This document shows, one piece after another, positions 4,419-56,799 of a stretch of 64,000 nt of DNA (position 1 is its first letter; each line of letters starts with the position of its first letter). The position numbers and the translations under genes were made by a program. Below the pieces are notes generated by a model. That model made no database searches, was not told the origin of the DNA, and was given only the letters and a program-made list of their open reading frames with translations. The stretch spans positions 128,876,397 through 128,940,396 of the forward strand of contig CM097887.1 in NCBI GenBank assembly GCA_044892525.1. Reading direction: 5' to 3'. Source of the DNA: Schmidtea polychroa. Its lineage: Eukaryota.

Positions 4419-4449
4419 AATTTAAAAAAAAATTTAAAAAAAAAAAAAA

Positions 4450-4520: not shown

Positions 4521-4635
4521 CCCGGGTCCACGCAATACCCTACTCTACTGTTTTTTCTCTCTCTTTTTCTCTCTTTTCTCTTTGTTCGATTGGGATTTAA
4601 GTGTAACCATGTATAGGCAGAATTTAATTCTCTAC

Positions 4636-5655: not shown

Positions 5656-5681
5656 TCTAGAGTTTAAAATGTTGTATTATT

Positions 5682-6075
5682 TTATTACTTTGTTGCAATA
5701 TTTTTATAATCTTATAACATTTTGCTTAAATATTTTACATCTGGTGAAATATTTCCGAAATATGTTATTACTTTGTTGTAATTTACTGAAAGACTTCACA
5801 ATTTATTACAATATTCTTTTTAATTTGTTGTCCGTCTTCGAAATAATGTATTGATTTGTCCCAATTAACATCATTATTTTATTACTTTGTTGCAATATTT
5901 TTATTATTTTAGTTACAATTTGATAAATATTTTACAACTTTGTTGAAATTTTCTGAAATATGTTACTACTTTGTTGTAATATTTTCTAATCTTGTTACAA
6001 TTTGTTTAAATATTTTACAACTGTTGAAAATTTATCTGAAATATGTTATTATTTTGTTACAATTTTATGAAAACG
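5682..6075. repeat. Degenerate 83-84-bp tandem repeat (TTATTACTTTGTTGCAATATTTTT...), mirrored at ~3037-3430
   Basis: Unit starts at 5682, 5765, 5879, 5963 and 6046. Confidence 0.85.
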
Positions 6076-6231
6076 TTATAACTGTTTTGCAATTTGATGA
6101 AAAATGATATTACTTTGTGGGTTCATCACATTATTTTTATTAAATTATTATGAAAATGTTAAATAAGTCAACTTTAGCATCAAAATGTGTTTTAAAATAT
6201 ATTGAACTTTTAAAATACTGTAACGTAATGC

Positions 6232-6340
6232 ATTTATTTTTCCTACCCCTTCCTTGATTTTGATTGGTCAGAATATATTTATTTTTCCTACCCCTTCCTT
6301 GATTTTGATTGGTCAGAATTTAATCATGTGTAATATATAA
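6232..6340 (+). promoter_or_regulatory. Pol II-type promoter of pPolB: two copies of a 43-bp block with a reversed CCAAT box, then a TATA box (mirror copy at ~2772-2880, minus strand)
   Basis: ATTTATTTTTCCTACCCCTTCCTTGATTTTGATTGGTCAGAAT at 6232-6274 and 6277-6319 (ATTGG at 6263 and 6308). TATATAA at 6334-6340, about 50 nt upstream of the predicted split start codon. Confidence 0.6.
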
Positions 6341-6391
6341 GCAGTAACTTTTCAAATGTTTGTCATTTAAACTTTTAATTTAACTTATATA

Positions 6392-9300
6392 AGTGAATAA
6401 TTTTTTATTCTCTATCTAATATTAATGATTATTTTCTTTTAGTGAACGGATGCAGTTTATATAAATTTTGTATTGCCGAAAGTCATGAAGATGTGGAGAA
6501 CTGTAAATCAGTTACATCATCATATTTCAAGATAAATGACTCTACCTTATCGGGTTACATATGTCCGGAATGTCTCATTATATCACCAGGTAGGTGGTTA
6601 ATGTTTGTACGACAACACGGACACCATCTTAGAAGATTCGAAGAAACGAAGAGCAGGATGATCACTAAAAGTAATACTCTTTCTACTATTAACAATTATT
6701 AATTTTTTATAGTACAACCGAAAATGAATACATCATACGATCCTAAGCAGATTAAAGAATATGTTACAAGTTATGTTATTTAAGTTGTTTAATATTAATT
6801 ATAAATATAGTTAGACAAAACTCTGGCACCACAAAACGAAAGTCAATATTTTACGGAAATGGAGACTCTAACATACAATTGTGTCCACGTCGGGAGTCTG
6901 ACTTAAATGGTTCTCGTGTTGAATTGATAAGCGATGTATCTGCAATTAATTCTCCTGACATTGTTGTTCCAGATTGTCTCATCAAAGAAATAGAAGATCA
7001 TATTCAACGAATGGGGACAGTAAAAATCCAATTTGGACTTTGTGCAGAGTTTATCAAAGAGGATGGTGAAATTAAAAAATGGTGTTTGTCGAATAAAGCA
7101 ATTACAATGTCATCTTCATTTATTAATGATGGAATTGAAAAATTAAAAGAAAAGTTGGAGAAATACACTCAACAAAGTAGTGGGTGGAGAATTCATAAAA
7201 TACTAGAAGTTACTATGATTTAACTAAATTATCAGACATAATACATGTATCTGGTAAGTTTATTTACATTATATATATATATAAATCAAGATATTTACTT
7301 AGGTTCAAGTTACATTAAAACGCCAAATTACCTGAAAAACTGCCAGGCTTTAGTTAATGTTCAAAATAATGATCAATTCTGCTTTTTATATAGCATACTG
7401 GCCGTATTACGTTATGATGACATACGTCGGGATAGAGAAAGAACAACAAAATATAACTTAAGTGGTAATATATATATTTATAAATGTCATAAATCATTGA
7501 ATTTTGTTTTTAAGACTTAAAATGGAAATTTGAATGGTTTCCGATGAAGTTGGTTAACATTTGCCAATTTGAAGCAATGAATCCAAATCTAGCGATCAAT
7601 GTTCTCAAATATAATAAAGATCCAATTAAACAAAAAACTAATGATATTTTCAAGAATCGGTTCGTTGACTTGGTATATAGAAGTACTTCGACGGGATCTC
7701 AGATATATCTCTTATTGATTGAAGAAGGTAATATTTCTTTTAATCATTAAAAATATTAACTAAATTTTAGAATTAAATTATCATTTTTTGGCTGTAACTA
7801 ATCTCGATCGACTGCTCAATTACAGAGATAGAGTAGAAGGAGTCAGAATCCAATCACATTGGTGTCATACGTGTCTTCATGGGTTTCAAAAACGTCCTGC
7901 TTTTGAAAGACATATAGGTCTTTGTAGGAAGAATGTGGAGCGGACGACTCTATACTCAATGCCAGAGAATAAATATATCGAATTTAAAGACTGGAGTAAA
8001 ACTATAAAACAGCAGTTTGTTGTCTATGCGGACTTTGAATCAATATTACCTCTAGATGACAAGCACTTCCAAAAACATGAGCCGATTGCATCTGAATTTG
8101 TGCTTCTTCATCAAGGTTGTCCGATTCGAAATGAAACATTTGTTGGGAAAAACTGTATCATTCAGTTCATACAAGCATTGGATGATATAGCTACAGACAT
8201 AGTTTATCCGTGGTATAAAATTAATGGATCAAAGGAAATGATGGAACTCTCTTGGGAACAGCAGGAAGAATTCACGACTCAAACTCATTGCTACCTTTGT
8301 AAAAAGATTATCAATATACCTGTTCGAGATCATGATCATTTTACTGGTCAATATCTCGGAGCAGCGTGTCAAGATTGTAATTTGGCTAGAAGAATCAATC
8401 CGTCTTTACCTGTTGTATTTCATAATCTTCGTGGATATGACATTCATCATATATTAAAATATGCAATTGGAAAATTCCCAGATTGGAATTTAATTGTTAT
8501 TCCTCAATCAACAGAAAAGTTTCTCACACTTACAGCGACATCGAAAGGCAGAAGAATTAGATTCATTGATTCTTTACAATTTTTAAATAGCAGCTTGGCA
8601 AATTTATCAAAAAACTTGCCACGTCTTCCACTGACCTCAGATGTTTTCGAATCACAGATGATGACTTGTAAAACCATTTTTCCTTATGATATGGCTACAT
8701 CAATGGATGTTTTACAGTCAATAACAGAATTACCACCGATTTGGGAGGGAGTTAGTCAAGAAGATTATATACATGCAAATCGAATCTGGCGACAATACAA
8801 CTGTGAGACACTGCTAGATTACATGCTAGTATATCTCAAGTTGGATGTTTTTCTGTTGGCCGATGTTTTTGAAGCTTTCAGAGAAAAAACATTTGACGAA
8901 GATGGACTTGAGGCTCTATCGTTTGTTTCCATACCCGGATTAAGTTGGGCATCAGCTATTAAACAGTTACCTGAACCAGTAGAATTTATTCAAGATCCAG
9001 AGCTTTACCGTTTATTTGAAGCTGGTATTCGTGGTGGAATGACATTTATCAACAAACATCATGTTGAAGCTGATGAATCAACACAAATGTCATACCTAGA
9101 TGTTAATAATTTATATGGATGGGCGCTGTCGCAAAAACTTCCTGTTGGTGAATTTAGATGGCTAAATGATCAGACTGAAATGAATGGTATTGTTGAAAGA
9201 TGTGCAAATGGGGATGAGTTTGATGGAGATCGTGGATATGTTCTAGAGGTTGACATCGTCATTCCTGATAGTATACAAGATAAACTAGATGATTTACCTA

Positions 9301-10382
9301 TAGCTCCTGAGCTTTGTTATCCGCCTGGTAGTAAAGTTGAAAAGCTGTTGTTAACTCATGAGCCTAAGAAAAACTATGTAGTTAATGGTAGAGTTTTGAC
9401 AGAGTGGTTGAGTTACGGCGCAAAAGTCACAAAAGTTAATCGTGCTGTAGAATTCAAGCAAGTGGCTATTTTCAAAGGCTATATTGATTACAATACCAAA
9501 ATGAGAGCAGCTAGTACAGATTCGTTTCAGCGAGATTATTATAAGTTAAAGAACAACAGTTTATACGGTAAAACTGTGGAAAACTTGAAGAAACGTATAA
9601 ATTTGAGATTATGCAGCAAAAACAAAAGATTGATAACTTATTGTAGTAATCCTATGTTTCGTCGTAGCATCAAGATTGCGGATGATCTCATTGCTGTTAT
9701 ACTCAATAAGGAAATTGTGTGTTTAGATAGACCAATGTATATTGGACAAACCGTACTTGATTTATCCAAACTTCGCATGTACCAGTTTCAATATAAAGAA
9801 CTACAGAGTTATAGAGAAGAATTCAATTGTCAAATTAATATCGTAGCCGGTGACACAGATTCCTTCTTTTTAGAGTGTAAAAATGTAGATTTACGCTTAC
9901 AACTATATCCAAAAATGATTGCCGATGGGCTCCTAGATACTTCAAATTATCCAGTGACTGATCCATTGTTCTCAGATAAAATTTGTTCGGTAATCGGGAA
10001 ATTCAAGGATGAGAATAAAGGAAATCAATATAAAGAATGGGTGTTTCTTCGACCCAAGTGCTACTCACTCCAAGGCGATAAAAACACTCTAAAAGCCAAA
10101 GGAATAAGACTTACAAACTCTAATCTTACACATGAAGCCTATAAAAAAGTGTATACTGATGGTGGAACAGTGAGCATCCCACAAAAAAGAATAGGAAGTG
10201 TCAATCATCAGTTGTATACTTTCATGACAGAAAAACGAGCTCTCCAATGTTTGGACGATAAAAGGTATTGGTACAATTGTAATGAAAGCTATGCCTACGG
10301 TCACTATAAGATTCGTCAAATGCATATCGCAACTGCTCCGTCTACAAATGAATGCAATCGAAACAAGCACTTTAACAATTAA
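6392..10382 (+). CDS. polB: Protein-primed family B DNA polymerase (Polinton/Maverick-type pPolB), spliced gene of ~1,240 codons with one frameshift; last exon 7771-10382 intact
   Basis: 864-aa ORF motifs: Exo I VYADFES, HNLRGYD, FIDSLQFL, Exo III YLKLDVFLLADVFE, GIRGG, Pol A YLDVNNLYG, Pol B KLKNNSLYGK, Pol C GDTDS, FLRPKCY, KAKG. It also has an endonuclease VII-like insert (CYLC..VRDHDHFTGQYLGAACQDCN). Upstream ORF pieces carry N-terminal motifs typical of this family (SGW..IL, GSSYIKTP..NVQNNDQFCF, FP....QFE..NP..INV, YHFLAVTNLDRL) and join in frame via GT-AG introns 6393-6442, 6671-6712, 6770-6810, 7254-7302, 7465-7514 and 7728-7770. Confidence 0.9.
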
Positions 10383-11049: not shown

Positions 11050-11430
11050 TTGGTCTATATTCGATCTTGATATTCCATGACCTTGAAAGTGCGCTGGAGT
11101 CCTTACTATTCACTACTAATATTACACTTGTAAATGTTCTCCTACTAGGTATTAAAAATCTGGATTTAATTTTTCAATAAAAATTTTAAAATTAGCTGAA
11201 TCCATAAACGATAACGGAAGTCCATCTTATAAAATCTGACTATTTAATAGAAATTCAGCAGAAAAATTAATGTCAGCACTTTTGTTCATATCTTCACCAT
11301 GCTCATTTGCCATATGGTAAAGCATACCATTTGTTTGACCATTCATGGAAATAGTATGTTCGCAAAGCTTGCATTTGGTCATATTATTACCAATTTCATC
11401 AAAAAAAAACCCACACTAAACTTCTTTTTT
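11050..11430 (-). pseudogene. hAT transposase N-terminal remnant with BED zinc finger
   Basis: Manual translation: VW.FFDEIGNNMTKCKLCEHTISMNGQTNGMLYHMANEH (W, Cx2C, Hx4H), followed by DGLPLSF; interrupted by stops. Confidence 0.65.
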
Positions 11431-27551: not shown

Positions 27552-30238
27552 CAGGGTTGCCAGATTTTGAAAACATCATGTCGGGAGTAACGAAAAAAAA
27601 TATTTCGACTGGTCTTTTTTTAGTTTATTTTTTTATACAGAAATTAAAAAGATACATAATTCAAATGCTGTTGAACAAAAAAAATTAAATCAATAAAATA
27701 AAACAAACAAATAAAAAATAAAAAAATTAACAAAAAAAAAACAAAAATAACAAAAATAAATAAAAAAATAAAATAAAATAACAAACATAAAAATAAAACT
27801 AAAAATAAATAAATTAGTGATAATACCAAAATATTTTATAATATTTTTCAGATCTGGCAGCGTTTTTTATAATTAGTTGAGCATTTTCTGTTTGGAGAAA
27901 TTCAATAAATTCTTTACAGGACATTTTAAAATTTTCTTTTACCATTAATTCTGCTTCAAGGTTTTGCAACAACAATTTATTTCGTTCCTTGCGCCAAGCG
28001 GTTGTCATCAAGCTGAATATCCTTTCGGAAGTTGCATTGGTATGAGGAATAGAAAAAATTATGCATACTATTTTATATAAATTTGCTGAGTTTTCATGAA
28101 CTTTAAAGAATTTTACTCATTTTTCATCAGGTAATAATGTGTTCAGTTTTTCTCTTTCTGTATTTATAAAATAATTTAATTTATGAATTTCTTCGAATAA
28201 AATATCTTTATCAATATTGCAAATATTAAATTTTTCAATGATTGCTACTATTTTATTATATTGAATTGATTCTTTTAAACTTAGTGGTTTTAAGATTTCG
28301 AATTTATTATTTTCGAAATTAAACCATTTTTGCAAATAAGTTATTGCCACATTAAAAAATGAATTTGCTTCTATTTCAAATCTTTTTATGGCAGAATCAT
28401 TATCACATTTTTGTAATATTGTTCTTGCGATTGAGCCGTAAAATTGTTGCTCTTTTCTGTTGATTAACGATTGTCTGACTTCATCCATTATATCATATAT
28501 ATCTATTATAAGAACGTTGTTGGTTTGTAACTTTTTTAAAGCGGGCTGAAATATTGAAAATGTGTTCATAATAAATCCTAGATAAGCTATAGAAAGCTCA
28601 TCTTCAAAAAATAATCGTATTCCAACAGATATTGAATTTTGAAACAAAAAATATGATTTAATTGGTTCAAAATCTTTCAATAACCTTTCACCAGCAGGTA
28701 AAAGGCTTAGCCATCGACTTGGAACGTGGCGTAAGATTTCCGACCATTCTACTTCGGCCCATTCAAAAAAATCTTTTAATGTAGGGGTTTTTTTGTTGAC
28801 GAGCTAAACTCGTTATAAATTTTTATGACTATTGAATCAATATCAATTTTCAGTTAGGTTGTGGCTTTTTTCGCAGTGTTGTGCAGAATATGACTATTAC
28901 ATCCAATCGGAATAATTTTAGAATTAGCTTTTTTAAATTCCGTAAAAACACTCTGGTTCTTCCGAAATTCACAGCTGCATTATCCGCACAAAGAGATGAT
29001 AAATTTTAAATATTTAAACTTTTGCATTCCAATTTATTCTTTATATAATCTGCTGTCAACTGAACGTTCACTATCTAGTGAATAAAAAGACAGCAGAACA
29101 TTTTGTATACCTTTTTCTTTGGTAAAATATCGCAAGACTATAGGAAATGTTTTAACATTTCCTTTATTCGAAGCATCGGTACTCACAGAAAATGGAATAT
29201 CACCTTTCAACTGTTCTAAAATTCTTCTTTTCGATTCCGGGGTCAAAACATTACAAACAATTTTGGATATTTTGGTTCTTCCACAGCTGTACTTTCTTGC
29301 TATATTTGAATCAGAAAGCAAACCTGAAAATATTGAACCAGCACAATCACTAGATAAAAAGCTGTGTGAATGCATGATGGTATGATAGCAAAAAGCCACT
29401 TCTGCTGATGTACCAAGTCCTTCGTCTTTGCTGCTTTTTTTACAAAATAACGTAGTCAATTTTTTTGAATTTGCTGATGCAGCTATCTTGGATCGATGAC
29501 CAACCGTTTTAAAGTGTCTTTTAATATCATTTCCACCACCATGTGATATAGAAATTTTAAAATTATTACACACTGTACAAGTAATGTGATGATCACCACA
29601 TTGTCGAATCCAGTCATATGACTTCGTCCATTTCGGATTAAATTTTACTGTATACTTCACTTTTTTTTATATATCCTCTGTTTTCGTCAGAATCAATGCA
29701 TTCCAAATTCGAATCAGACATTTTTAGGCTATAATTAGTACGTCTTATTAAAAAACGAAAACCATTACAAATTTCAATATTAATATATTGAGTTTTTATA
29801 GCTTATACTTACTTTATTCTTTATATATTATATTTATATGTGTTAAATATTACGTAGACGCACCGAGATTTATTTTAATTTTATTCAATATAAATTATAT
29901 TTAGCTTCCTATCCTAATTGTATGATTGTATCACTTAATTTATTTAATATTTTGTTCCAAACGACCATTTTAATTAATTGAGATTCTTAGAATACACAAA
30001 TAAACAATAAGTAAATTTAGACATCAGAACAATACTTATAGGCAAAACACAATGCGCAAAATGTCAAAAAAATTCACTATTTTCACCCAATTGGCATTAC
30101 TTCAAAATGTTAAGTGATGACAACTGCTGAAAAAACTTAATTTACAAATCGGGAGTTTTTGGCATGTATATCGGCAGTCGGGAAATATACTTTCATAACG
30201 GGAGACTCCCGACGAAATCGGGAGGTCTGGCAACCCTG
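27552..30238 (-). mobile_element. hAT DNA transposon, 2,687 bp, with TIRs and 8-bp TSD
   Basis: TIRs CAGGGTTGCCAGA (27552-27564) and TCTGGCAACCCTG (30226-30238). TSD ATTCCAAT at 27544-27551 and 30239-30246. Confidence 0.95.
27814..29660 (-). pseudogene. Disrupted hAT transposase
   Basis: Zn finger (CTVC..SHGG..DIKRH..T.GH), first catalytic Asp in FSVSTDASNKG, RWLSLLP motif just before 28680, and SIPHTNATSERIFS near 28040. Split into ORFs 29034..29660, 28117..28680 and 27814..28011. Confidence 0.9.
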
Positions 30239-30491: not shown

Positions 30492-33203
30492 GTTAAGACT
30501 GACATGTACATACAAAAGTCTGACAATTATATATTATATATTCACCAGACGAAGGATTCATGAAAAAATAGAAGTTGTTTGTAAGAAACTATTTTGGAAA
30601 GTTCTTTGAAAATTTCAAAACTTTCACAAGATATATTGTAAAAGGATAACTGAAACAAACGAATTCGTGACCAAAAAATAAAGGAATTTACTAAACATAA
30701 AATGTAATTTGAAAATTGCTGGGTCTTTTAAATATTTGTTTTCATTTCGTTATCGGGTTAAAAAATAGATTTTACAATAATATGTAAAAAATGTCAATAG
30801 GATTGCAGAAAAATTTTAAAGTGCTTTTCATTTTATATAATTCTTAATCTGATTTGAAATGCTAAATAATAGTTTTTTATATGAATAAAAATACATCTGC
30901 AAAATGCCACCTCTGTCAGGAACAATATTTTTAAATAGAATTATGTAAGACGGGTTTGCCTCAAACTGCGTCACCATCCCCATCATTATTATTATTATCA
31001 AAATCCTCATCAGTATCATCATAATAGGGAAACTAGACATTCTATGTTACATACAATCACATACCTTCAACTGCGTTCCCAACACTGCCATTGATTGAAT
31101 ATTATTATTAATTTATTACCTCTGAATGAATATTAATTTATTATTTATCATTTCATTAATAGTTACTAGTTCTAGATTGATAATTCAATATATTCANNNN
31201 NNNNNNNNNNNNNNNNNNNNNNNNNNNNNNNNNNNNNNNNNNNNNNNNNNNNNNNNNNNNNNNNNNNNNNNNNNNNNNNNNNNNNNNNNNNNNNNNNNNN
31301 NNNNNNNNNNNNNNNNNNNNNNNNNNNNNNNNNNNNNNNNNACAAATAAACCAGTTGAAGATATTCAGTCTCAGAAATCACATAAATTTTGAATATTATT
31401 TTATATCTTTGGAATGCTATGAATTTATAATTATTTAATAAATAAAAGAATTAGTTACTAATATTGAATTATGATATTTTCTTATGATATTTGGCAACAA
31501 ATAAATATTCTGTTCTTTGTTAAGCTTACACAAAAAGTATTTCTTGGCTACTTAAATTTTGTTTTATTTCGCATGTCAAAGGGAAATAATATTTAATTTC
31601 ATGGTCTCACCATTAGAGGAAAAGCACGATTGTTTCGTAAGCTAAAAAGCATAACATGTTGGATTTTGCATTATAAACGCTAGTTTAGTTAATCAGAAAA
31701 CAATGATAGAAATGAATCAAACAGTAATGAATTTATAGAATTCGGAGAAACTGCAATAATTCACCCCCCCCCCTACTTTTAAATATTAATTATAATTAAA
31801 GATAGTGTTTAGAAAATACCAATTATCCGTGGAAGAGATCATTAGAAGCTAACATCAATATGACAAATAAAGCGACCGCATAAAAATCCCAGTTGAAATC
31901 TCAAATCTCCCACATTTTACTATTGGGAAATATTTTCCAGAATTTCAGAATTCTAAATTTACAACTAACATTATTGAAAATTTGAAGAAGATTTCTTTAG
32001 ACTGCTTTCATAATCGAAATCTGAACGACTCAGTCTGTCCATTTTATGGATTTGAATACAAAATTTACTAAATAATTGTCAATTACTGATTTCTGCTCCC
32101 AGACCATTGTTGCCTAGTGACGGTAACATAATTACCCCTAGTGTTAGCGTATCGAGTGCCCCCTCATCGCACCAATCTAGTCTCACTCAACCGTCAAACC
32201 GACAGCAATCGACATTCATCTGAAGTGAGCTCAGATAAAAATTAAATTTCTGCCCAATTTAAGCTAGAATTGGGTCTCATCGGGGAACGCCTGAAGTTTC
32301 CACGACTTGCAAATCATTTGTCGGGCTTAATTTGGCGTTCTGATACAACTGGCCGTTATTTCATTTGCTATTTTACCTATTAATGTTTGTTATTGANNNN
32401 NNNNNNNNNNNNNNNNNNNNNNNNNNNNNNNNNNNNNNNNNNNNNNNNNNNNNNNNNNNNNNNNNNNNNNNNNNNNNNNNNNNNNNNNNNNNNNNNNNNN
32501 NNNNNNNNNNNNNNNNNNNNNNNNNNNNNNNNNNNNNNNNNNNNNNNNNNNNNNNNNNNNNNNNNNNNNNNNNNNNNNNNNNNNNNNNNNNNNNNNNNNN
32601 NNNNNNNNNNNNNNNNNNNNNNNNNNNNNNNNNNNNNNNNNNNNNNNNNNNNNNNNNNNNNNNNNNNNNTAAAAGTCGAAAATATTTTCATTAAATACAT
32701 TATTTGCAGAAAAAGGCTTAAATTATCACTTTATTGTTTTAAATAATAAATGCTGCTACCAAGAAATCATCACTTTATACTTTAATATGAAGTTTGATTG
32801 TTTTGGTTTTTTCTAAAAAAATTAATTAAATTAAAAATTTTAATTTTTTCCAATAGAAAAAATAATAATAATAATAAAGTATTTCTTGTTTTAATTTTGA
32901 TATTTTTTTTCGAGAAAGAATAACTTTCATAGAATAATTTATTTAATTTCAAATACAAATTGCTTATAAATATTAAAATAACAAATATTTTAAAACAACT
33001 AATGAATTTTAAAAATATTTAATAATAAATATTATAATCAGCAATAACGTGTCAAAATTAGCGTCTTATCAAAGAATTTGTGATTTTCTTTGCTTGACAA
33101 TAATTAAAAACAATTTTAAAGTATTATTTCGAGTTTAAACAGAATTCGGTTAAATATCAATAATTGTTTTTCACTTTATATTTGATTCCACGTGTTCAGT
33201 ACT

Positions 33204-33368
33204 CAGTGCCGTGCTGTAACTTTTGGGGCCCTTGTGCAGACACAAAAATTTTTATTTTTAATTTTATTGAATTCATTTTAATTGATTTTAATGAAGTTTT
33301 TCTTATGTATTTAATATTTGGGGGCCCATTGTGATTGCACTTGTTGCACTTGCGATAGTACGCCGCTG
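33204..33368. mobile_element. 165-bp hAT-type MITE
   Basis: Ends CAGTGCCGTGCT and AGTACGCCGCTG; flanks TCAGTACT and ACAGTACT (7/8); internal GGGCCC motifs. Confidence 0.75.
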
Positions 33369-34205
33369 ACAGTACTATACAGATGAAAACCCCCAACAAT
33401 GTATTAGTTCATGTTTAATATCCCATGTTTAATATCCCATGTTTAATATCTGGTTATAGTAAATTATATTTCTACCACAAATTGTTAAACTTGAAATAAT
33501 ATTGAATGCTTGTCACAGCTCATGAGGAAGAACAGCAAAGTAGTTGATCACTAGGCTACTTACTATAGGAAACTTTGATTTAATAAGTTGGTTCTGGTTT
33601 CTTATCCGTGATTTTATTCACATTTTCAGATCCCCGATTGAATTTTTGATAAGGCATTTTTAATCACCACTTGATTGAATTTCTGCATTGTCTCTGTCTA
33701 TGTTACAGTCAATGATTCTCCTTTCAATAACTGATTCAATTGGGTTTAAAAATCTTCGGACGAATCTTTCCACTAATTAATCTACTTGATATTCTAAGTT
33801 TTGTTAAATATTTTTGGTCACCACAATTTGTCGTTTCAGTTCATTTTACTGTCAGTGTTTAGTCATTTTTGTCATTTTTTCGTTCCCTTACAGAAATCTA
33901 AATTTGTTTTACATACTTATTCTTATCTTTAACACTTATGTTATTTTTTGTTATTATGCACTCCAGATCTAGGTACCCCCTACTTTTTTAAAAATTTTTT
34001 GGATACCCCCCTATCGTTTTTTAATTTTAAATTTTGTTTTAATTATTGATTACATAATAATTTTTAATTTTGTTTTAGTAGTGATTATGTAATAGTTTAA
34101 TTTTTTTGTTTAAATCGTTGAATACGTCATCAATTTTCATTTTTTATAAGATATTTTTACGTCAATATATTTGAAATTAAATTCTCTAATAAATGAGACT
34201 ATGAC

Positions 34206-36737
34206 ATAATCAAAATCGTGAAATTTCATTTTTAGTGCACCATTTTTGAATTTACACATCTTTTCAAACAACTATACATCTTTCTCATTCATTCATATTC
34301 CTGTATTGAAATATTTACAAACCAACATGTTTTAGTTACAAAAAGAGTTATCAATAAATTGAGTAAGGGTAGGAAATTATTTAGAATCAATGAATAACAC
34401 ACATACCTTAGTATAATAGATGTTAATACATATTACAATAAACCCACTCACATGCGTATACATAAAACACGCACATATTAACATTATTTCATACGCACGC
34501 ACAAATTAATATTATTCAATACAGAAAATTCATAGAGGTTAAGCACATATCAACCAATCAAAATCATGCATTGATTTTGCATTGTTTTGCATATGAGTAA
34601 TATCAAAAAAATTAAATTCATTATATCATTAAATAATAAATTCTTTTACAGTATTTTAAACTATATTCAATCAAATTATAAAAATATTGCAACACAGTTG
34701 AGAAATGAACAAACTTAAATAATAATATATTTATTAATAATGTTGGGTTATTGAGTTGGTGACAATATTTGTAAATTCAAACTTTTACTATGGCTCCAAA
34801 GCGTGTTTATTAATTCACAATTCAACACTCTCGAACACAATTAAGCTTTATTTATGATCCACACGGAATAGTGCAAACTTCAATTACAACCAATTAACTA
34901 TAAACCAATTTATCACACAGAGCTTATTTCGTCACTACGTGAAGAATAACTCTTTCTGTAACCACAACAAAAATCCCTAGGCGTCAACTACTCAATCGAT
35001 TGTTCTAATTGCTTTGACCACACAATTTATTTACTCCACTTTTACTTTATATTCAATTTTATAAAGGATTTTTGTCGCTTCTCATTTTTACTCTGTTTTG
35101 ATTCTCCTTTTCAACTCTTTCGTCTCTAATTTTACTCTACTTTTTGTCTCTAATATCGTTTTGTTTTGTTCTCAATTTCGTTCTGTTTTCGTTCTACTTT
35201 TCGTTCTAATTTTGTTCTAAATCCGTTCTAAATTTGTTTTAAATTTGTTCTAATTTTGTTCTGATTTCTCGTCCACCAGTTTTCCTTTATATAGTTGTTT
35301 TGTTTATGGCACTGACGGCAGATTTTGTTTTTCTATTTCCATTTTCTTCTGCGTTCCCCTATATCAGCCTTATCTCTGACAGATGTCGAGATATTTTTCC
35401 TTTTTCCCTTTTTTGTTTGACCGCCTTCTTCCAGCAATTACGTTATCACTGGCAGGCTGTCGAGATAATAATATTGTTGTTTTCCTTTTCTCCTTATTTC
35501 AAAATTCCTTTTCCTTTTTGTACTAATTAATTAGTACTGACCTTGGCTTTTATTTTCATGTTTGTTTCCTTTTATTTCCTTTATTTTTCTCATTTTTAAT
35601 TTCTTTTTATTTCCGTTTTCTTTTCTACGTTCCCACAGATCGTCCCGTTTGTCATGACGATCTTCCCCCCAGGTAATTTTATTTATTTATTTATAAATTG
35701 TTTATTTAGGTATCCTCAACAATAAGATATATTATTTTCAATAATAATTTATTTTTAAGTTCATAAAACCGAGAGAAATTTTATTTTATTTAATAATATT
35801 TACTGTGACAAACAGAAATTGGAATTGATATAAAGATTTAATACACTGATATAACTTTTCATATACCTCAAATAAAAACACTATAATAAAAATATTAATA
35901 GTTTTGCAAACAGTGCTAACACATATAGTTAACTAGTCATTGGTACGTTATTACTTTGTTGCAATATTTTTATAATTTGTTACAATTTGATTAAATATTT
36001 TACAACTTTGTTGAAAATTTACCGAAATATGTTACTACATTGTTGCAATATTTTTATAATCTTGTTACAACTTGCTTAAATATTTTATAACTTTGTTGAA
36101 ATTTTCCGAAATATGTTATTACTTTGTTGTAATTTAATGAAAAGTTTCATAATTTTGTGGTAATTTAGTGTAAAATATTTATTCAATTATTGCCATTCAC
36201 CGAAATAATTTTATTAATTTTATAACCATTAACTGAAATAATTTATTATTTTGCAATAATTAATGATTGAATATAGTTTAAAATACTGTAAAAGAATTCA
36301 TTATTTAATGATATAATGAATTTAATTTTTTTGATATTACTCATATGCAATAACAATGCAAAATCAATGCATGATTTTGATTGGTTGATATGTGCTTAAC
36401 CTCTATGAATTTTCTGTATTGAATAATATTAATTTGTGCGTGCGTATGAAATAATGTTAATATGTGCGTGTTTTAATATATGTATACGCATGTGAGTGGG
36501 TTTATTGTAATATGTATTAACATATATTACACTAAGGTATGTGTGTTGCTTATTGATTCTAAATAATTTCCTACCCTTACTCGATTTATTGATAACTATT
36601 TTTGTAACTAAAACATGTTGGTTTGTAAATATTTCAATACAGGAATATGAATGAATGGGAAAGATGTATAGTTGTTTAAAAAGATGTGTAAATTCAAAAA
36701 TGGTGCACTAAAAATGAAATTTCACGGTTTTAATTAT
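34206..36737. mobile_element. Foldback element with ~470-bp inverted arms, related to the non-coding core of the pPolB palindrome
   Basis: 34206-34673 is the imperfect reverse complement of ~36265-36737. It shares GATTTTGATTGGT, TTTCCTACCC, TTAAAATACTGTAA and the 84-bp repeat (35948, 36032, 36116) with 5682-6319. Confidence 0.85.
34741..35670 (-). mobile_element. Probable LTR with adjacent polypurine tract, inside the foldback spacer
   Basis: Minus strand: GGGGGGAAGA (35670-35661), then T(C)GTCATGAC, TATATAAAGG (~35293), an 11-12-bp minisatellite (35160-35265), AATAAA (~34810), ending CCCAACA at 34741. No TSD found. Confidence 0.4.
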
Positions 36738-39380
36738 TTATGATTTTGTCAGCATGTTGTATCAAAAGGTACTTACAATCGAAATGCCTTTTGATTATTT
36801 TATTATTCTGATTGACAACTTAACTGAAATTTCAAAAAATATTTATTTTAACAATACAAAAGGCAACTTTAAAAAGTAAACAAAGTCTTTCCGAACAATT
36901 CAGATTTTGGACACCCAACACAAATTCATTGGTTTTCAAACCATAGTTAAGTATGATCTGAATCATTACTCAAAAAATTATTACATATATATAACTATTT
37001 ATTAGGGGAAAATTTCTTGTTAGGTTTTTCAGTGAAATAATAAATTGACAACTATTGATCTGAGTCTAATCGTAATTTAGTTAACAATACCAATAAATTA
37101 CAAACAATATAATTTTTTAATTAACATAAATACAACCTTGATTCACTCTCCATTAAACTTAGTCAAAAATCAAATACTACTAGGTAAAATATAAGTGAAA
37201 AACAATAAAATGCGATAAAGTCGTTCTTAATTAACAAATACAAATGGAAGAAATAAAAACAAAATCTCAATTAAATTTGGATATCTAGACAGAGGTCTAG
37301 AGATATTAAGAAAATTAGGGATGATATAAGAGAATGTGCTGGAAGTAAAAATAATTATCTGTAAGTGTTATTAGATGACAGAATTTAAAAACAAAACAAA
37401 TTTTTGATTCAAAAATAGATTTAGTTTAGGGAAAAAGAAGACAGAATTTATAAAGAAAAAATGAGACACGATTTTAAAAGGGAAAGACAAACGAGAAAAC
37501 AGAAACTCTAAAGCGAAGACAAGTGAATTATGAAATTATTGAAAAACTTGTCAGATCGGAAGAGAAATTTAAAACAAATTAAAGTTATTAATCACAAGTA
37601 TCAAGTAATTTCAAGTTAATGTCTGGTAAAAAAAATAAATCAAATTTACCATTTATCGAAACCAGAAACAGTTGTTAAGTTGTTGTGAATTCCGATTTGA
37701 TGTCACTGTAAATTGATAATCAATTGTGCTGATCAAAAAAAGTTTATGTTGTTTGGAATTTGTCATTGTTGTTGTTACCAGATAAACACGTTTAGAATTA
37801 GACCAATAATAGTTAATTTCATATTTCATCGACAACTCCAGCAAATTTTACCTTTTTACAATTGTAAAGTTTCAACTTCAAATTTTTTATTTTTTTCACT
37901 CTCCTGTTACTGAGATCTGTTTTTGTTTTTATATTTCTTCCTATCATTGACATTTATGTCATTACCCGTTATCGAGTGTTTTCCATTCGTGTTCCTCATA
38001 CAACACTTGATACGATTATTCAACATTTCCTAAATTCTAACACTAAACGATCATACAACAATTATTGTATATTGAATTCTAATACTTTTCACAATTAGCT
38101 ATAAGTAGTAAGATCAACTAATTCCTTTTAATAATTAGTGAATTCCTTCCCATTTGTTTTCTTTTATTTTCTGCTACACTTGTTTATTAATTTTGACCTT
38201 GTTTTAATTTCCTTTTTCAGAATTCAACAGTAAAATTTTCTTGTTCTTGTGACAATATTTGTGCTACAGGCCACTGTGCATATTTGAAACAATTGGCTAT
38301 GGTCATTGAATTTACTTCACGCCAAGCTAAATGTGTAAATATAATTGAATCTCGTGCTGTTAACTTGTTGTATGTATCAAACACATCACATCCTGCTTCT
38401 ATTTTAACTTTTTATTCCATTTACAACATTATCTATAAAACGGAAGCGCTAATGCAACATACTAATTTTACAATATCCAATTTTTTATAATATCCTACTT
38501 TAGTATAAAAGTTCTTATGCACAAAATAATGAAATAAATAATAAATAAATTATTTAAGAAAACTTTAAAAATCACAGTAAAAAGAATTTATTGGTTTACT
38601 TTCAAATATTTTTAAAGTGTACATATAAAAAAATATTATTTAATAAATTATATAAATTTAAATTATAAATATTATATGAAAAATTTTTATTAAATTTGAT
38701 TGAATACGACTCTTTTGATTTCGGGTTGTTTGAATATTCAATTAGGAATGTGCAGTCTCCATGACCCGAGCGTAATTGCTGATATAAACTTAACCTATCC
38801 ATTAACTGCATGTTCTGTGATCCGATGACGAGGAGTACTAGAAGCAGCTTTACGAGATTTATCGTTTGTGATGCCCATTCGATTTATAGGTGAAGTATTT
38901 CTTTAATTCACAAATTGTTCAAATTACAGTTTAGAGCTCATTTTTTATTGATTAAAAGATGGAAATGTTTGAAAGAAAGTGTATATATATATAAGAATAT
39001 TAAAACAATGTATTTTAATTTAATTAATTTAATAATGTATTTACAATTTAATTATTAAATTAATATATTTATTAATTTGAAAGTCAGGCACTAAAGTTAG
39101 CATTTAATTTTTCCCCATCAAATCTTTTTCAGAAATAAATACAATCAATTTTCCCAAAAATATTTTTTTTCAAATTACATTAAAATTTAATTGCACACGC
39201 TTTTTCAATGTCATCTATGAAAACAAGACCCCGGCAATAGCGATGACAACAGGAACGGAAGTCTGTATTGATATTTTTAGTATGAATTTCTGAATAAACT
39301 GAAAGCTTTACATTGAATATTATGCGAAAATTATTTGATCTGGATTTTGAAAAATGGGATTCACATTTTAAATATAGTTC

Positions 39381-39454: not shown

Positions 39455-40379
39455 CAACATTATCTTGTTGTGATTCTGGTATGCTCAATTTATTTACTTA
39501 TTGTTATAATTAACTTAAATGAATAAATAAATAATATTAATTAATTTTTATTATATTATGTTATTGCATTCTATATTAATATAAACATTACAAGCTTTGT
39601 CACACCCAGTACAAATCCCAATAGTAGACTAGTTTCAAACTTTTGGCTCTCATCAGTACTATGCAGGAGACGCGAAGATTTATAACAAAACGAGTTAATA
39701 AATTTTTATAAACTTCATAAAATTTAATTTTTAAATGGGACTCTTTTGATTTTTGTGTTTATAAATATTTTGGTATTAATACTGGTATCCGGTTTTAAAT
39801 TTTCAATACCAAAATACCGGTATTGATAAAATGGCCAAATCCCGACATGCTCTAATATATAGGCATTAGTATATTTTTACAAATTCAAAAATACAATCAC
39901 ACATGCTGAACGATGGAAGAAATTCCAGTTAGGTTGTATATATAAACAAAGAGAGAGCTTGTATAATAATATATAATAAACTATATTTTATAAAACTATT
40001 CGCATAGCCCCCTGAACTTTTCGACTCCCATCTTTGAACACAGTCATTACCCAATTTATCACCTCCCCTGATTTTAAAAAAAGCTCAAAACTATCTCGAG
40101 AGATTTCGCCTAAGTTTATCTGCAAACACGGCAATACTACACAGATTTTGTTTTGGTTTTAACGCCTATTGTTCGTGCAATACATGGTGGGTTAGACAAA
40201 ACAAATTTAGACGAACATGCTACTACTGTCGATAGGATATGACAAAAAAGCGCTCCACAACTTGCTATTTACAAAATTCCTGAGAAATCAACGAGATGCT
40301 TAGAAAAGTCTAACGCCCATGACAACGCCATAGCGTCCTAACATCATATTCCGACAACAGATTATAAGGCGTACCGAAC

Positions 40380-40990
40380 ACTTTCAAGGGAGTTACTACT
40401 GGAAACCGTATTTAGAGAACTCGAAAAAGCAGACATCATACGACGTCCCTCAACATTTTCGGTTTGAGCGATATATGTCTATTCTAAAAGCAATGGTTCC
40501 CTAAAACCGTGCGGTTACTATAGATTCCTGAACTCAAATACTTATTGTTATCTCAAGCCACTGATTATTGACATCCTAAAACATATACATGAAAAAACTG
40601 TTTTTTCAAAAATAAATTTAAAAAAGCGTATCACCAGATTCATATCGCCACCCAGATATCCCTAAGACCACCGTAATAACACTTTTCGGTTTATTTGAAT
40701 ATGTGGTGATACCCTTCGGTTTACGAAACGCAGCGCAATCTGTCAAGCGTCATATCGACCATGTTTTCCACGACATTGATTTTTCGAGACCTTACCTTGA
40801 CGACATATTAATACTTTCCTGTTGGAAAAAAGAGTTCATGTTGGAAAATTACTTTCAGTGTTAAACCAAAAAAAACATGATTAACAAGAAGTGTGTTTTT
40901 TTCGATAGTGAAGTACAATGCTTAGGCCATCTCATTTCCAAAGAAGGAAATAAATCAAATACTTTAAAAGAAGTTGTAAATGCCTTATAT
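40380..40990 (+). pseudogene. Ty3/gypsy reverse transcriptase remnant
   Basis: GLFEYVVIPFGLRNAAQS..RHID and PYLDDIL motifs; many frameshifts. Confidence 0.8.
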
Positions 40991-42549
40991 TGAATTGTCT
41001 TTTAGTTTTGGCCAGTTTACTTAAATAATTATTATAATTTGTTTGTATAATGTTAGTTTTATTATGAGGTTTTGTTTAATTGTGCATATTTGTTTCTGTG
41101 ATTCCTTATTCGCAGTTTATGGAACCCATGAATCAATTATTTAATTATTAAAATCAAAGTAATAAATTAATTATGTTTACACCATTCCAGAAAATATTAT
41201 AAATGCAGATGGTCATAGTTAATGGAAATTCTTGTCGTGGGTAATTATAATAAACCAGATGTGTTGTATAAAATATTATTTTTCATTAAGCTGACATTGG
41301 AAATTTTTTTCACTAATTAAAAAACTAATCTTTCAATTACAGCAGAAAGATCCAATTTTATGAAAAAAATACACAAAAATTCTACCATACATTTAAACAA
41401 AATAAGTTTTTATTATTTATAATATACCAATTAAATAATTTTTCCTCATATATTCTGTGTTTTTTTAATTTTGCCAATTCCACCATATGTCGAAATTTTT
41501 TATTTTCTAAATAAATAAAAGAATATTTTCTGTTTTCAATATTTTCAATTGATTTCATAATACTAAACAGAAAAAATTCTTTTTCAATAATGAGTAGTAG
41601 TTAATAAATTTCTATAAAAATTAAATTAGCTTTCGAAAACTTCATTCAAAGTGGTGGGTAAAACGAGTGGGAAACCTTTCATATTTGTACTTGTTTTAAC
41701 CTGTCATAACTCTGTATCTGCATTTCCCTTGCAACGGGGCATAACTATTTATTTAACCACTTAACACCAATCGCAAGCTACGTTGATGATGTAGTCAGCT
41801 AAAGGTAGACTCCATCATAAGGCCTTCTAGTACACTGAAGTGCCTCTAGATTCACGGACTTACAGTAGAAGCTGTATCGCCTTATTTTCTATTGTCCCCT
41901 GATCGTCCCATTATTCATCCTACCTCTTTGTCGTTTCCTTTTGTCTCAGATCTCCGTGTTCGGAATTTTTACTTAATAAGATTTTAAAAAATTCGAAATA
42001 CGAGATTGTACGGCCGGTGGATTCTGTCGAAACGTCTACGATTATGTTGACGAAATATATCAAAGTAATCTATATTACGAAATTCTTTTAAACAGAGTCA
42101 GTCGGATTCTTTACAATTTTAAATTATTTCAATAAAATCAGACTCCCTTCTGGCTTCAATATGATAATAGCAAAATATTCTTTTTGATTCGTATTGTCAC
42201 TTTTCCTCTTATCAACGGAACGGGTAAGTAGTAAATAAATTAAATAAAAATTCTAAAAAAACATTCTTTAAAAACAATAAAAATTTACATTGTATTTATT
42301 AAAAATATTGTTTTTTTTTGATATTCACGAATTTTCGGCACAGTATTTTTCAAGTTAAATCAAATCACTTGAAAAAGACTGCATAAAAATTCGTGAATAT
42401 CAAAAAGTACATCGATATATTTACTGATTCTTAGTCAATATTTTAATAAATACAATGTCAATTGAAAAGAAACCAGAGGTGAAAATTGAAAAAAGTTATA
42501 ATGATAAAAATTTGGTCAATGAAAAAATTGATTTAAATTATTGTAATTT

Positions 42550-45754: not shown

Positions 45755-47577
45755 CCTTTAACCGGAGAGAAGAGTCTTTTGGACTCTTTCTTTTAACCAT
45801 ACGTAAACCAAAATTAAAATACTAATTCAAATTTAAATTTTTTGCACATTTTTTTAACGAATCATGAATTTTCAACAATATTCGAATTTTTTCAAAGTTT
45901 CTAAAATAACGTATTTTCAAAAAATAAAAAAATATACCAAAACAGACAGATGCTTAAATTTCACAAGAAAAATTTAAAAATTTAAAAAGGGGATTTAATT
46001 TTAAATTTAATTATGAAGATTTTTGGGATTCTCTTTTTGGAAGCCCTATATTTCGCGCTACTATGGGTATAAGGCGTTTCTAGTCAATTTTAAGATTTTA
46101 CCGATTTGATGACAAGGAGAATCGGTCAGTGCGCAGATCCAATGATAAATTGGCTCCAATTGGGGATGTTTGGGAAATCATAAATAAAAATTTCTCAAAA
46201 CATTATATTCCAGGCCAAACTTAACCATTGATGAGCAGTTGGTTCCTTTTCGTGGACGAATAAGTTTCAAGCAATACATACCCAGTAAACCAGATAAATA
46301 TGGAATAAAAATTTGGTGGATTGTTGAAAATGAAACGGCTTATACTTCGAAAGGAATTCCATATTTGGGCAAAGAGGGTAACACGAGAGCATTAAATTTA
46401 GCCCAAAATGTTGTTGAAGAACTATGCATACCGTTTCATCGTTCAAATCAAAACATAACATTCGATAACTATTTCACAAACTATGAACTAGACAACTCTT
46501 TGTTGTCTAAACGCTTAACTACTGTTAGAACACTTCGCAAAAATAAGACATTTATACCTCAATCATTTTTGCCACATCCATCTAGAGAAGTTAAAAGCAC
46601 AAGTTTCGGATTTAGTAACACAATGCCAATAATTTCGTACGTACAACAAAAAATCAGGTACTTCTTATTGTTATCTACGAAACATCACACAATGAATGTT
46701 GATACTGAAAATAAAAGAAAGCCTGATCAAATTTTGTTTTATAACGCTACAAAAGGAGGAGTAGATACAATGGACAAACTATGTAATGCTTTTACTGTCA
46801 GACGAAAAACTAATGGGTGGCCTTCTGAATTTTTTCAGAATTTAATTGATGTTAGCGGCGTAGCTGCGCTTGTAATTTGAAGAAATTTTTACAATGAGAA
46901 AATATGTGATTCTCAAAGAAAAGCGTTTATTAGGGAAATCACATACGATTTAGTAAGGACTCAGATCCTGAAAAAGGTATTAGTGCTGCTCATTTGTCAG
47001 TTATAAATGAAGAATTACAAAACACTAACGAAGAAAACTACGGAGAAACGACGTCGACTTTGGAAGATCAACGAAAGAAGAAACGTTATTACATATGACC
47101 TAATGCAATTGACAATGGGAATCATTTGACTAATTATCCTCCTAACGTTAAAAACAAATATCGACGATGAAATAATTATTTTTCTCTTAATTGTTTCTAA
47201 TTAAACTGATCCAAGCAGTATTGCGTCACTTGTAACAGGAATGTATGCAATGAACATTCACAAAATACAGTTCTTTGCCAAAATTGCTTAAAAAAATAAT
47301 AATTTGTGTTGTATGTATTGTTTGTATTTGATAAGTTCATGTTCTTGTTTTTTATGAATTAATGTTTGGTTTTGTTTCATATGTTTTATTTTTTTTTATT
47401 TCCATGAAATATGTATGGCTTGAATTATTTTTGTTTAAAAAAAAAGATTTGGACAATAAATAATTTTATAATTATAATTTTAAGGGATTTCTTATGTATT
47501 CATTAAATATTTAGCTTAAGAGTCCTTCGGATTCTTCTATCCGTTTATGTTACAAAAACATTATGTCCAGTTAAAGG
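45755..47577 (+). mobile_element. piggyBac transposon with TTAA TSD
   Basis: TTAA (45751-45754)|CCTTTAAC ... GTTAAAGG|TTAA (47578-47581). Subterminal inverted GAAGAGTC..GGACTC / GAGTCC..ATTCTTC. Confidence 0.9.
46020..47290 (+). pseudogene. piggyBac transposase (PGBD4-like), disrupted
   Basis: TIDEQLVPFRGR, PSKPDKYGIK, ITFDNYFT, YNATKGGVDTMD, and a C-terminal Cys-rich YCVTCNRNVCNEH..CQNC; stops flank ORF 46239..46880. Confidence 0.92.
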
Positions 47578-55644: not shown

Positions 55645-55902
55645 TTAAATCTAACACGTTATTTCCAAAAATATATTTAATATAAAATCCGAATATCTAA
55701 ACAAAATAACAGTCTAAATATCGTCACTATTTCAATTAATTAAAGATTGGTTTAAGAGGTACTTGAGTGAATGGAATTTATTATTATTTTTAAAAATCTC
55801 AATACAGCCATCTCATATCGGTTACTACATAGTAAATGATCATTCTAGACGTATAAAGTATATATATATATATATATTTCTAGGTAAACTATTTGGAACG
55901 AA

Positions 55903-56799
55903 ATGAAAATATTCAACACCTCAACTTCAAAGCAGTACGAAAGGAAATATGTTTTCAATTCTTACGACACAATTCATTCAAAATTAAACCCAGATCAGTA
56001 TCGAAATCATTTGGATACCAATTATGTCCTTGGCCGTCCTTTAATTGGGATCATCATTTTAGCTTCTCTTTTTTTGTGTACTCTTATTGGAGCTTTATTG
56101 GTGATTTTGATTTTTTGTAAAAAGAAAAACACAGTTTTTGTACTTCCAAAATCCAGTTTATCTGAAGCCTGGAGGTCAAGTATCGAAATGAACAGCCTTC
56201 ATTCTGGATCGGTTGCAGACCTGAACGGATATGGAGATTGGTTAATGCTATATAATGGTAAAATTCAATCCGTTCCCTCGTGCCATCAGATTAACAATTT
56301 TTCAACTAATAGAAATAAAAATAACAATCAAATGTCTGTCGAATCAGCTTTTTTACTCCATATATTTGGATCTAAACAAAGTTTATCTAACAGCACAAGA
56401 TTTCAAGAATCATCGATGAAATCGAACATTTCCCGAAGTCAAAGTTGTCAGAGTAGCATGTCATTTAAGTTCCCCTCATTCGACGTTCTTAAAAGAGCAG
56501 TTTCTAAAAGAGGTGTAAAACTTTCATCTTCAAAGACCTATGAAAGGCTGAGTGATCCTGAAGATAATGAGTCGATTAGTCGTAATCAAAGCACATCGAC
56601 TGCTCACGTGTCAATTATTTGTAATCAAAGAGCAATTGAAGAGGCTAAAGATGTTTACGGCTGTGCCGTGTCCAGTAGACCATGGTTGAAAGATAATTCG
56701 AGTAAACTTTCCCAAATTCCAACAGACTTTACTAAAGTCAAAGTCAACATAAACAGAAAGGTTTATGGCATCAGAAATGTATACATTACAGACGATTAG
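55903..56799 (+). CDS. Unknown single-pass membrane protein (or its last exon), 298 aa, with Ser-rich cytoplasmic tail
   Basis: Long open frame in very AT-rich DNA. Hydrophobic stretch LIGIIILASLFLCTLIGALLVILIF followed by CKKK (positive-inside). No family recognised. Confidence 0.6.
   Translation: MKIFNTSTSKQYERKYVFNSYDTIHSKLNPDQYRNHLDTNYVLGRPLIGIIILASLFLCTLIGALLVILIFCKKKNTVFVLPKSSLSEAWRSSIEMNSLHSGSVADLNGYGDWLMLYNGKIQSVPSCHQINNFSTNRNKNNNQMSVESAFLLHIFGSKQSLSNSTRFQESSMKSNISRSQSCQSSMSFKFPSFDVLKRAVSKRGVKLSSSKTYERLSDPEDNESISRNQSTSTAHVSIICNQRAIEEAKDVYGCAVSSRPWLKDNSSKLSQIPTDFTKVKVNINRKVYGIRNVYITDD

Follow-up and report, generated by a model that had tools for sequence, protein, structure and literature searches.

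An old gene-less palindrome near a Polinton-type pPolB gene in Schmidtea polychroa, tentatively read as a damaged foldback-type transposon

Introduction

A stretch of 64,000 nucleotides from Schmidtea polychroa (GenBank assembly GCA_044892525.1, contig CM097887.1, positions 128,876,397 to 128,940,396 of the forward strand), called the window below and numbered from its first letter, contains two palindromes. One of them, at 1-9111, is named here the pPolB palindrome after its pPolB gene. The other, the 34-kilobase (kb) palindrome, lies ~25-30 kb away from it. An original prediction made from the letters of the window took the second palindrome for an independent member of the same family that had kept the core architecture and lost its genes, and saw in it support for head-to-head symmetry as a genuine trait of the pPolB element. 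What kind of element is the 34-kb palindrome, and what does it say about its neighbour? We read it, tentatively, as an ordinary decayed foldback-type repeat with a probable nested solo long terminal repeat (LTR), a known kind of element, and it carries a block of ~440 base pairs (bp) that appears to have come down to both elements by common descent. Published sources are cited here from excerpts, and statements about them extend to those excerpts.

Results

The inverted repeat

The arms of the 34-kb palindrome, predicted at ~470 bp, align over 467 paired bases with 455 matches, 12 mismatches (10 of them transitions) and 9 gap columns; BLAST reports 95.9% identity over 482 columns (E=0). The resulting divergence of 2.6% (~97% likeness), made up mostly of transitions and small indels (three), is a mutational pattern. 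The palindrome is real and old, and no echo of the pPolB palindrome created by the assembly. Three motifs were found where the original prediction had placed them, each with a mirror copy in the other arm: ACCAATCAAAATC starts at 34553 (mirror copy 36373), GGGTAGGAAA at 34367 (36567) and CAGTATTTTAAA at 34649 (36277). Within the window they are confined to the 34-kb palindrome and the two pPolB arms. The predicted orientation also holds, the shared block facing outward in both palindromes, as does the difference between them in the order of the CCAAT and CCTACCC motifs.

An 84-bp repeat had been expected in each arm. Its array, at 35947-36133 with a degenerate third unit in addition, is present on the right side only, to the inside of the arm, and the left side has a 27-bp stub whose alignment score is reached by none of 500 shuffles. 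One 29-bp word of the array has six matches in the window and none in 100 shuffles. Since the stub corresponds to the innermost unit, stands in mirror position and meets the arm at a 2-bp (CA) microhomology, both arms would once have carried the array, the left one having lost ~283 bp of it.

A multi-copy unit

Contigs of four of the 16 listed sequencing runs (X1, X2, X5 and X8) were aligned to 32700-38700 at 80% likeness. The assembly may itself have been built from X1 and X2; X5 belongs to a different study and differs in the flanks; X8, whose contigs are mostly LTR-like pieces, is at a guess an RNA run. Statements about contig differences and joints refer throughout to those listed, 40 of 558 rows of differences and 15 of 423 joints. 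Single-copy flank bins have depths of 218-401 (X1), 38-69 (X2) and 49-62 (X5), and in the same three runs every 200-bp bin of 33906-36719, the non-arm centre included, lies at least ~30-fold above them, a figure that describes summed depth and not copy number. The whole unit is clearly a multi-copy repeat family. Its outer arm and 84-bp array are several-fold deeper than its inner arm, the array being among the deepest bins outside the LTR.

At five places (34206/36737, 36362, 36412, 36414 and 36443) both arms share a letter that is absent from 84-100% of the aligned depth in X1, X2 and X5. Since they carry the same minority letters, the two arms stand apart from most of the family as one unit, and the distance between them is smaller than that to most of its members.

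The unit does not begin at 34206, where the original prediction had started it. The family reaches ~250 bp further left, to near 33959, because another copy (X8 record 25) aligns with 33952-34233 before diverging, and other contigs join 34099-34274. At 33976-33989 the single-copy contigs come to an end. This terminal module is joined to the arm in other copies too (X8 record 25, X5 record 21 and the X1 joint 34075/36717), and many of them skip a segment of ~40 bp within it, the joints (34059-34064 to 34103-34105) being present in each of the four runs. In the present copy both outer junctions are bridged by X2 contigs with 0 differences, record 12 of X2 spanning 36696-37059.

The block shared with the pPolB upstream region

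The interval 35948-36385 is collinear with 5879-6312: an array with 85% identity over 233 bp is followed by a weak linker and by two motifs. The likeness of the linker to the pPolB upstream region is weak (13 of 500 shuffles score as high). The spacing from the first array unit to TTTAAAATACTG is 329 bp in the 34-kb element and 330 bp upstream of pPolB, and that from TTTAAAATACTG to the CCAAT block is 95 bp as against 91 or 46 bp. In both elements, then, order and spacing are kept by the three array units, TTTAAAATACTGTAA and CCAAT; units 1 and 3 (the degenerate one) are nearest to their positional partners in the pPolB block, and unit 2 is not. Two exact matches of at least 14 bp to 6120-6440 have no parallel in 2000 dinucleotide shuffles, and any shared 10-mer with at least four G/C in this interval recurs in 16 of 2000. 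The sharing exceeds chance, and the kept order and spacing speak for common descent of the ~440-bp block in both elements.

The alignment of 5680-6340 with 35940-36740, proposed in the original prediction, therefore recovers a collinear block, but the remainder of the arm is unrelated. Kinship with the pPolB arms extends to about one quarter of each arm as it now stands, plus one displaced 10-bp CCTACCC word; the other three quarters or so are unrelated, as is the entire centre. The part of the arm outward of CCAAT (36386-36751) gives no alignment with 6314-7000 (238 of 500 shuffles score as high), the centre at 35722-35947 gives none with the inner parts of the pPolB palindrome (472, 51 and 222 of 500 shuffles as high), and the 144-bp and 27-bp arrays of the pPolB palindrome have no counterpart in the 34-kb palindrome. 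To speak of the same core architecture was an overstatement.

Because homology to pPolB relatives starts at 6421, right after the block, the block is the upstream region of the pPolB gene. In 80 relative loci (455 kb), three occurrences of a 14-bp CCAAT word were found at up to one mismatch, all of them upstream of pPolB and within the first 330 bases of two close relatives, the metagenomic contigs L008 and L022. L008 matches the CCAAT block of the 34-kb element at 22 of 22 bases and has a second, looser copy together with a TATA box. By length this match is modest (three of 300 shuffles give 22 or more, and control stretches taken from the window give up to 21), and its weight comes from its position. 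CCAAT boxes, which we take to be NF-Y sites, are common in invertebrate repeats. The CCAAT blocks upstream of pPolB are duplicated in both relatives (L008 1-110, L022 160-335) and lie on opposite strands relative to the gene, and in L022 an AAGTAGG word stands beside CCAAT, as in the pPolB arms of the window.

Coding content

The palindrome was rightly called gene-less, neither tblastn nor the Pfam scan having returned a Polinton coding remnant. With 1,294 queries, drawn from the proteins and open frames of the pPolB relatives and of their loci, tblastn gave no match in 33-37 kb and matched the window only at 1-2.7 kb and 6.4-10.3 kb. No match above the cut-off was returned by Pfam for 24 frames of 32680-35721 and 36752-38700, the right arm mirroring the scanned left arm; a sub-threshold match to PF22678 (E=0.038) was rejected, and a 45-codon open frame across the end of the left arm was dropped as expected by chance, by estimate, at 25% GC. 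Rfam had 0 matches in the window. Among viral contigs there was no relative by single protein, five distant ones were found by alignment, and the two-motif pattern occurred in 0. A bacterial promoter scan counted 27 sites as against 23.6 in shuffles, with a model ill-suited to a eukaryote.

The spacer and its solo LTR

Of the ~1,590 bases between the two sides of the element, 981 (34741-35721) would be a solo LTR inserted later. This reading follows from TG...CA ends, a 4-bp duplication, steps in depth, and a contig start and joints at 34741, TG...CA ends and duplications of 4-6 bp being published criteria for LTRs (PMC2253517). The flanking ATAA 4-mers would be equal by chance with a probability of 0.008. 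The interval forms the deepest bins of the element, depth stepping up and down at its limits; position 34741 is the start of another copy's contig and the site of joints in three runs. Its minus strand is purine-rich and has TATATAA at 35293, AATAAA at 35031 and an 11-bp tandem array at 35118-35272, signals that we presume to follow a U3-R-U5 order. Pfam returned no match above the cut-off in six frames over the interval, and no second copy of the LTR was found within the window.

At 35008-35113 the LTR has at least seven substitutions or indels relative to its family and locally looks further from it than the arms are from each other. For this, the arms would have to have been homogenised, the LTR to belong to a minor subfamily, or an earlier copy to have carried it already. 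A symmetry between the two halves of the element's own centre was considered and rejected (98 of 500 shuffles as high).

The ends of the element

The left boundary, 33959-33996, reads CACTCCA, 22 bp, TTAAAAATT. Transib termini consist of CACAATG, a spacer and AAAAAAATC, with CAC and two A's invariant, and the transposon makes 5-bp duplications with a preference for GC-rich sites (PMC1131882). A CAC with AA at positions 34-35 is expected by chance with a probability of 0.013 over the 14-base zone and of 0.003 at a distance of up to 3 bases; the fuller AAAAAT end pattern has four sites in the window. The pentamer TTATG stands at both mapped boundaries (chance ~0.036 on a 4x4 position grid) and is AT-rich. 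Maverick ends, in turn, are (AGT)2, (AG)3 or (AC)3A with 6-bp duplications (PMC8097293). None of these motifs was found at the mapped left end (CACTCC) or near the right end, and the lone AGTAGT, at 34077, is internal and lies inside the segment that many copies skip. No 6-bp target-site duplication adjoins both boundaries, one 6-mer lying 7 bases off the left boundary, and the right end may be lost. The left end looks Transib-like and not Polinton-like.

No 7-10-bp repeat was found in the boundary grid, and with it no duplication of the 8-10 bp seen in Tetris- or Mutator-type elements. The anatomy is that of a foldback element: long inverted repeats with internal tandem repeats enclose a non-coding middle, and the array is full on one side and a stub on the other. 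Two candidate relationships of the terminal module were discarded, one to the centre of the pPolB palindrome through TACCCCC and TGACGT-like words (score 80; shuffle mean 57, maximum 92) and one to the pPolB 3' flank (253 and 212 of 500 shuffles as high).

Table 1. Coordinates of the 34-kb palindrome and of the pPolB features compared with it (window positions)
Feature	Position	Strand	Remarks
Homologous block upstream of the pPolB gene	5879..6312	+	mirror copy 2800-3233
Intron-split Polinton-type pPolB gene with endonuclease VII (HNH) insert (predicted)	6421..10382	+	PF03175, weak PF02945; comparison point
Candidate target-site duplication TTATG, left copy, weak	33954..33958	+	direct repeat with 36738-36742
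Terminal module, left only	33959..34205	+	starts CAC, A-tract at positions 32-36 (spacing like Transib and recombination signal sequences)
Left arm	34206..34672	- (outward = minus strand)	CCTACCC motif 34367, CCAAT block 34553, CAGTATTTTAAA 34649
Stub of innermost 84-bp unit, 27 bp	34672..34698	-	96% match to 35953-35979
Left part of the element's own centre	34699..34740	.	ends in left ATAA duplication 34737-34740
Probable solo LTR, 981 bp	34741..35721	-	TGTTG...CAACA ends, 4-bp ATAA duplication
Right ATAA duplication (35722-35725) and right centre part	35722..35947	.	multi-copy; unrelated to pPolB palindrome centre
84-bp array (two good units, one degenerate) and linker	35948..36255	+	collinear with 5879-6200 upstream of pPolB; 85% over 233 bp, E=7e-65
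Right arm	36262..36737	+	TTTAAAATACTGTAA 36277, TGATTTTGATTGGT 36372, TTTCCTACCC 36567; terminal module absent after arm
CCAAT block	36372..36393	+	22/22 identity to motif upstream of pPolB gene, metagenomic contig L008
Candidate target-site duplication, right copy	36738..36742	+	alternative: arm homology to ~36751 with short duplication

The pPolB gene and its palindrome

The best relatives of the window's pPolB are metagenomic, with up to ~62% identity over most of its length. In one of them (L010) pPolB is 52% identical, and the locus also encodes an rve integrase, a Pox_A32-like ATPase and TBP. With this company of its relative, its PF03175 domain and a weak endonuclease VII match, the window pPolB is Polinton-type and HNH-bearing, like the published pPolB2 (10.1101/2023.08.22.554363). 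A tblastn search with the relatives' loci found no integrase or ATPase partner gene in the window itself. A pPolB from a 1.9-kb contig (protein P0006) is 96.7% identical over 513 amino acids to window 8178-9716, and another copy or allele of the gene thus exists. The 5' part of pPolB (6421-7771) is seemingly split by short GT-AG introns, placed by eye at ~7255-7302, 7464-7517 and 7728-7771; similar AT-rich intron-like gaps occur in the pPolB of L008. The TBP homologue of the metagenomic Polinton L010 lies at 10321-10764.

The unique arms of the pPolB palindrome differ at two of 3,450 bases. Its 144-bp arrays have 4.2 and 7.2 units, and the right one contains an exact 288-bp duplication of hybrid units. 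Judged from the assembly sequence alone, this palindrome (1-9111) would be very young, homogenised or misassembled. Its centre, 4132-4549, is a 420-bp piece with 30-bp inverted ends that start AGTAGAGTAG and point inward; within it lie three TGACGTCA sites, a TACCCCC/GGGGGTA hairpin and an AAATAC(C/T)G(C/T)AA repeat that resembles the promoter motif and occurs seven times. Among the 80 relative loci no long palindrome was found, inverted repeats reaching at most ~210 bp; since long palindromes would collapse in short-read contigs, their absence is uninformative.

Discussion

The explanation that we favour, and hold tentatively, is that 33959-36737 is an old, damaged copy of a multi-copy non-autonomous foldback-type transposon whose inner domain is shared with a Polinton, whose outer domain and terminus are its own, and which was probably moved in trans in a Transib-like manner. 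An ancestor would have acquired the block found upstream in the Polinton, or retained it, and a copy would have entered each arm. The family would then have spread by means of a cut-and-paste transposase supplied in trans, most likely a Transib-like one because of the CAC/A-tract end and the possible 5-bp duplication. The present copy would later have acquired the solo LTR in its middle and lost ~283 bp of the left array and the right terminal module; because of these three changes it is probably immobile.

Several observations weigh against this explanation. The Transib pattern was spotted after the fact, and its heptamer agrees at 3 of 7 bases; the candidate duplication is AT-rich whereas Transib favours GC-rich sites (PMC1131882). 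A single terminus survives, so that paired ends are not demonstrated, and no second copy of 33959-33996 was found in the window, the best candidate having 13 mismatches in 38 positions. The other copy mentioned above aligns from 33952, 7 bases to the left of CAC, and an X2 contig runs through the CAC boundary without stopping. No Transib transposase was found among the open reading frames of the window and the regions scanned. Under a 31-letter rule the outer junctions are bridged by X2 only, X5 (18 and 30 letters) and X1 both falling short, and no contig among the matches listed shows other copies in palindromic form.

It is conceivable, though rather unlikely, that the element is instead a gene-less foldback satellite of the pPolB(HNH) Polinton family, generated by copy-back during protein-primed replication, mobilised by Polinton polymerase and integrase in trans, and now decayed, with its true ends lost or misread. 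The shared block lies immediately upstream of pPolB and points outward in both palindromes; the CCAAT motif stands twice, with a TATA box, before the pPolB of L008 and has near copies in L022; the window pPolB is, by its relatives, Polinton-type; and Polintons with ~2-kb gene-bearing inverted repeats are in print (10.1101/2025.02.07.637071). A possible adenovirus precedent, in which inverted repeats would guide the duplication of one genome end, is given no weight here. However, the mapped end lacks the Polinton motifs, AGTAGT at 34077 falling in the skipped segment, and a 6-bp duplication is missing; the 1,294 pPolB-relative queries left 33-37 kb without a match; neither the centre nor three quarters of the arm is related to the pPolB palindrome; and CCAAT boxes are generic, the 22-bp match being modest by its length (three of 300 shuffles, with controls up to 21). 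Unlikely, too, is a local inverted duplication, in which part of a single relic composed of terminal module, arm and array was copied in reverse by fold-back or template-switch repair, so that the symmetry is a one-off. The two sides are indeed unequal at both ends, with the module on the left only and the array on the right only; the family-rare letters shared by the arms would also be given by local copying; and no target-site duplication is firm. Yet the non-arm centre at 35722-35947 is multi-copy as well, the left stub belongs to the innermost unit and sits in mirror position, which implies an inverted repeat that once spanned the whole array, and the candidate 5-bp duplication brackets the unit.

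The depth of the array bears on a further possibility, that a widespread repeat was inserted twice, inverted by chance, with the 84-bp array as an independent mobile unit. A case of this kind, a widespread repeat that merely entered the pPolB element, had been named in the original prediction as the one that would undo it. The array bins are indeed among the deepest outside the LTR and several-fold above the inner-arm bins, but in metagenomic relatives the same CCAAT motif precedes pPolB, the two arms have five family-rare letters in common, and the succession and distances of array, degenerate third unit and two downstream motifs are preserved from one element to the other, unlike those of a free-moving array; two separate insertions are very improbable. 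An assembly or amplification artefact is hardly credible. Although the window contains 12 gaps of N and no listed contig spans the whole stretch, there are 12 substitutions and three indels between the arms, and both outer junctions are bridged without differences by X2 contigs and approached by contigs of X5, from another study.

The foldback-type transposon that we favour is a gene-less, diverged relative of the pPolB element in so far as the two share the ~440-bp block, apparently by descent, and to this extent the claim of an independent family member stands; simple loss of genes from a pPolB element does not. The element would not simply be a gene-stripped pPolB element because no Polinton coding remnants were found, most of the arm and centre is unrelated, the spacer is mostly LTR, and the mapped end lacks a Polinton motif and a 6-bp duplication. 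Nor can it serve as proof of head-to-head symmetry in the pPolB element: the architecture is not the same, the pPolB arms differ at so few bases, and one of their arrays contains an exact duplication. Because its middle is mostly an unrelated retrotransposon end, the 34-kb palindrome supports a common head-to-head design less strongly than the original prediction held. The pPolB palindrome is plausible by analogy, if unproven, since Polintons with long gene-bearing inverted repeats have been published (10.1101/2025.02.07.637071).

What the element marks is a conserved cis block (84-bp array, TTTAAAATACTGTAA and CCAAT) that is probably an upstream control region of the Polinton pPolB gene. If the family is palindromic with CAC ends, a non-coding module would have passed between a virus-like self-synthesising element and a cut-and-paste transposon; if Polinton ends were proved, the case would be a small addition to gene-less foldback Polinton passengers. 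A bolder and doubtful idea is that the HNH-pPolB Polinton lineage routinely makes inside-out palindromes whose promoters face outward from a core rich in repeats, with a polymerase-carrying helper form (1-10.4 kb) and gene-less passengers, some of them on cut-and-paste (Transib-type) ends. If true, the cis module of a virus-like element would be riding a second transposition system. In a literature search over titles and abstract openings, which left out most subscription journals and Repbase, neither a palindromic non-autonomous Polinton nor a combination of Transib, foldback and Polinton was described, and the lone match for the non-autonomous Polinton phrase concerns Tlr1.

Other features of the window

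The flanks of the 34-kb palindrome contain other high-copy repeats: a short deep repeat near 33.3 kb (33200-33400) and, in the right flank, a 74% inverted pair (37033-37118 and 37736-37828, within 37033-37828). By eye, a fragment at ~38220-38430 on the minus strand is presumably pogo-like. Transposon remnants elsewhere comprise a BED finger, a hAT-type element with a dimerisation domain, a reverse transcriptase fragment and a piggyBac-type transposase (11300-11400, 27800-29670, 40000-41000 and 46188-46880). A 303-codon open frame at 55888-56799 has a stretch like a membrane span, with no Pfam match and no homologue among the longer proteins.

Comparison with known systems

Foldback anatomy has arisen independently from several transposon lineages, as exemplified by Tetris and Galileo (PMC4079207, PMC3573991). 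With Tetris (PMC4079207) and the Galileo copies with two terminal inverted repeats (PMC3573991), as the excerpts describe them, the 34-kb element shares long inverted repeats, an internal tandem array, a non-coding middle, unequal arrays and the occurrence of deletion derivatives. In contrast to them, it has no 8-10-bp duplication, a CAC-type end, and an inner domain shared with the upstream region of a Polinton pPolB gene. The nested 34741-35721 resembles the solo LTR of an LTR retrotransposon (PMC2253517) in its TG...CA ends, 4-bp duplication, TATA and poly(A) signals and high copy number, whereas a second copy in the 64-kb window and a parent element were not found. Likeness to Polintons or Mavericks, above all to those with a pPolB2-like gene bearing HNH (10.1101/2023.08.22.554363; PMC8097293), lies in the repeat-plus-CCAAT block and in the recurrence of its motif upstream of the relatives' pPolB; unlike what the excerpts report of these elements, the one described here is gene-less, measures 2.8 kb with the LTR, and has neither an AG/AGT end motif nor a 6-bp duplication. 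Non-autonomous Transib elements (PMC1131882) differ from it in that here the heptamer agrees at 3 of 7 bases, the target is AT-rich, one end is present, the inverted repeats are far longer than the 38-bp conserved terminus, and no transposase was found among the scanned regions; what the 34-kb element has in common with them is the CAC start, an A-tract at the position of the nonamer, AA at 34-35 and, possibly, a 5-bp duplication.

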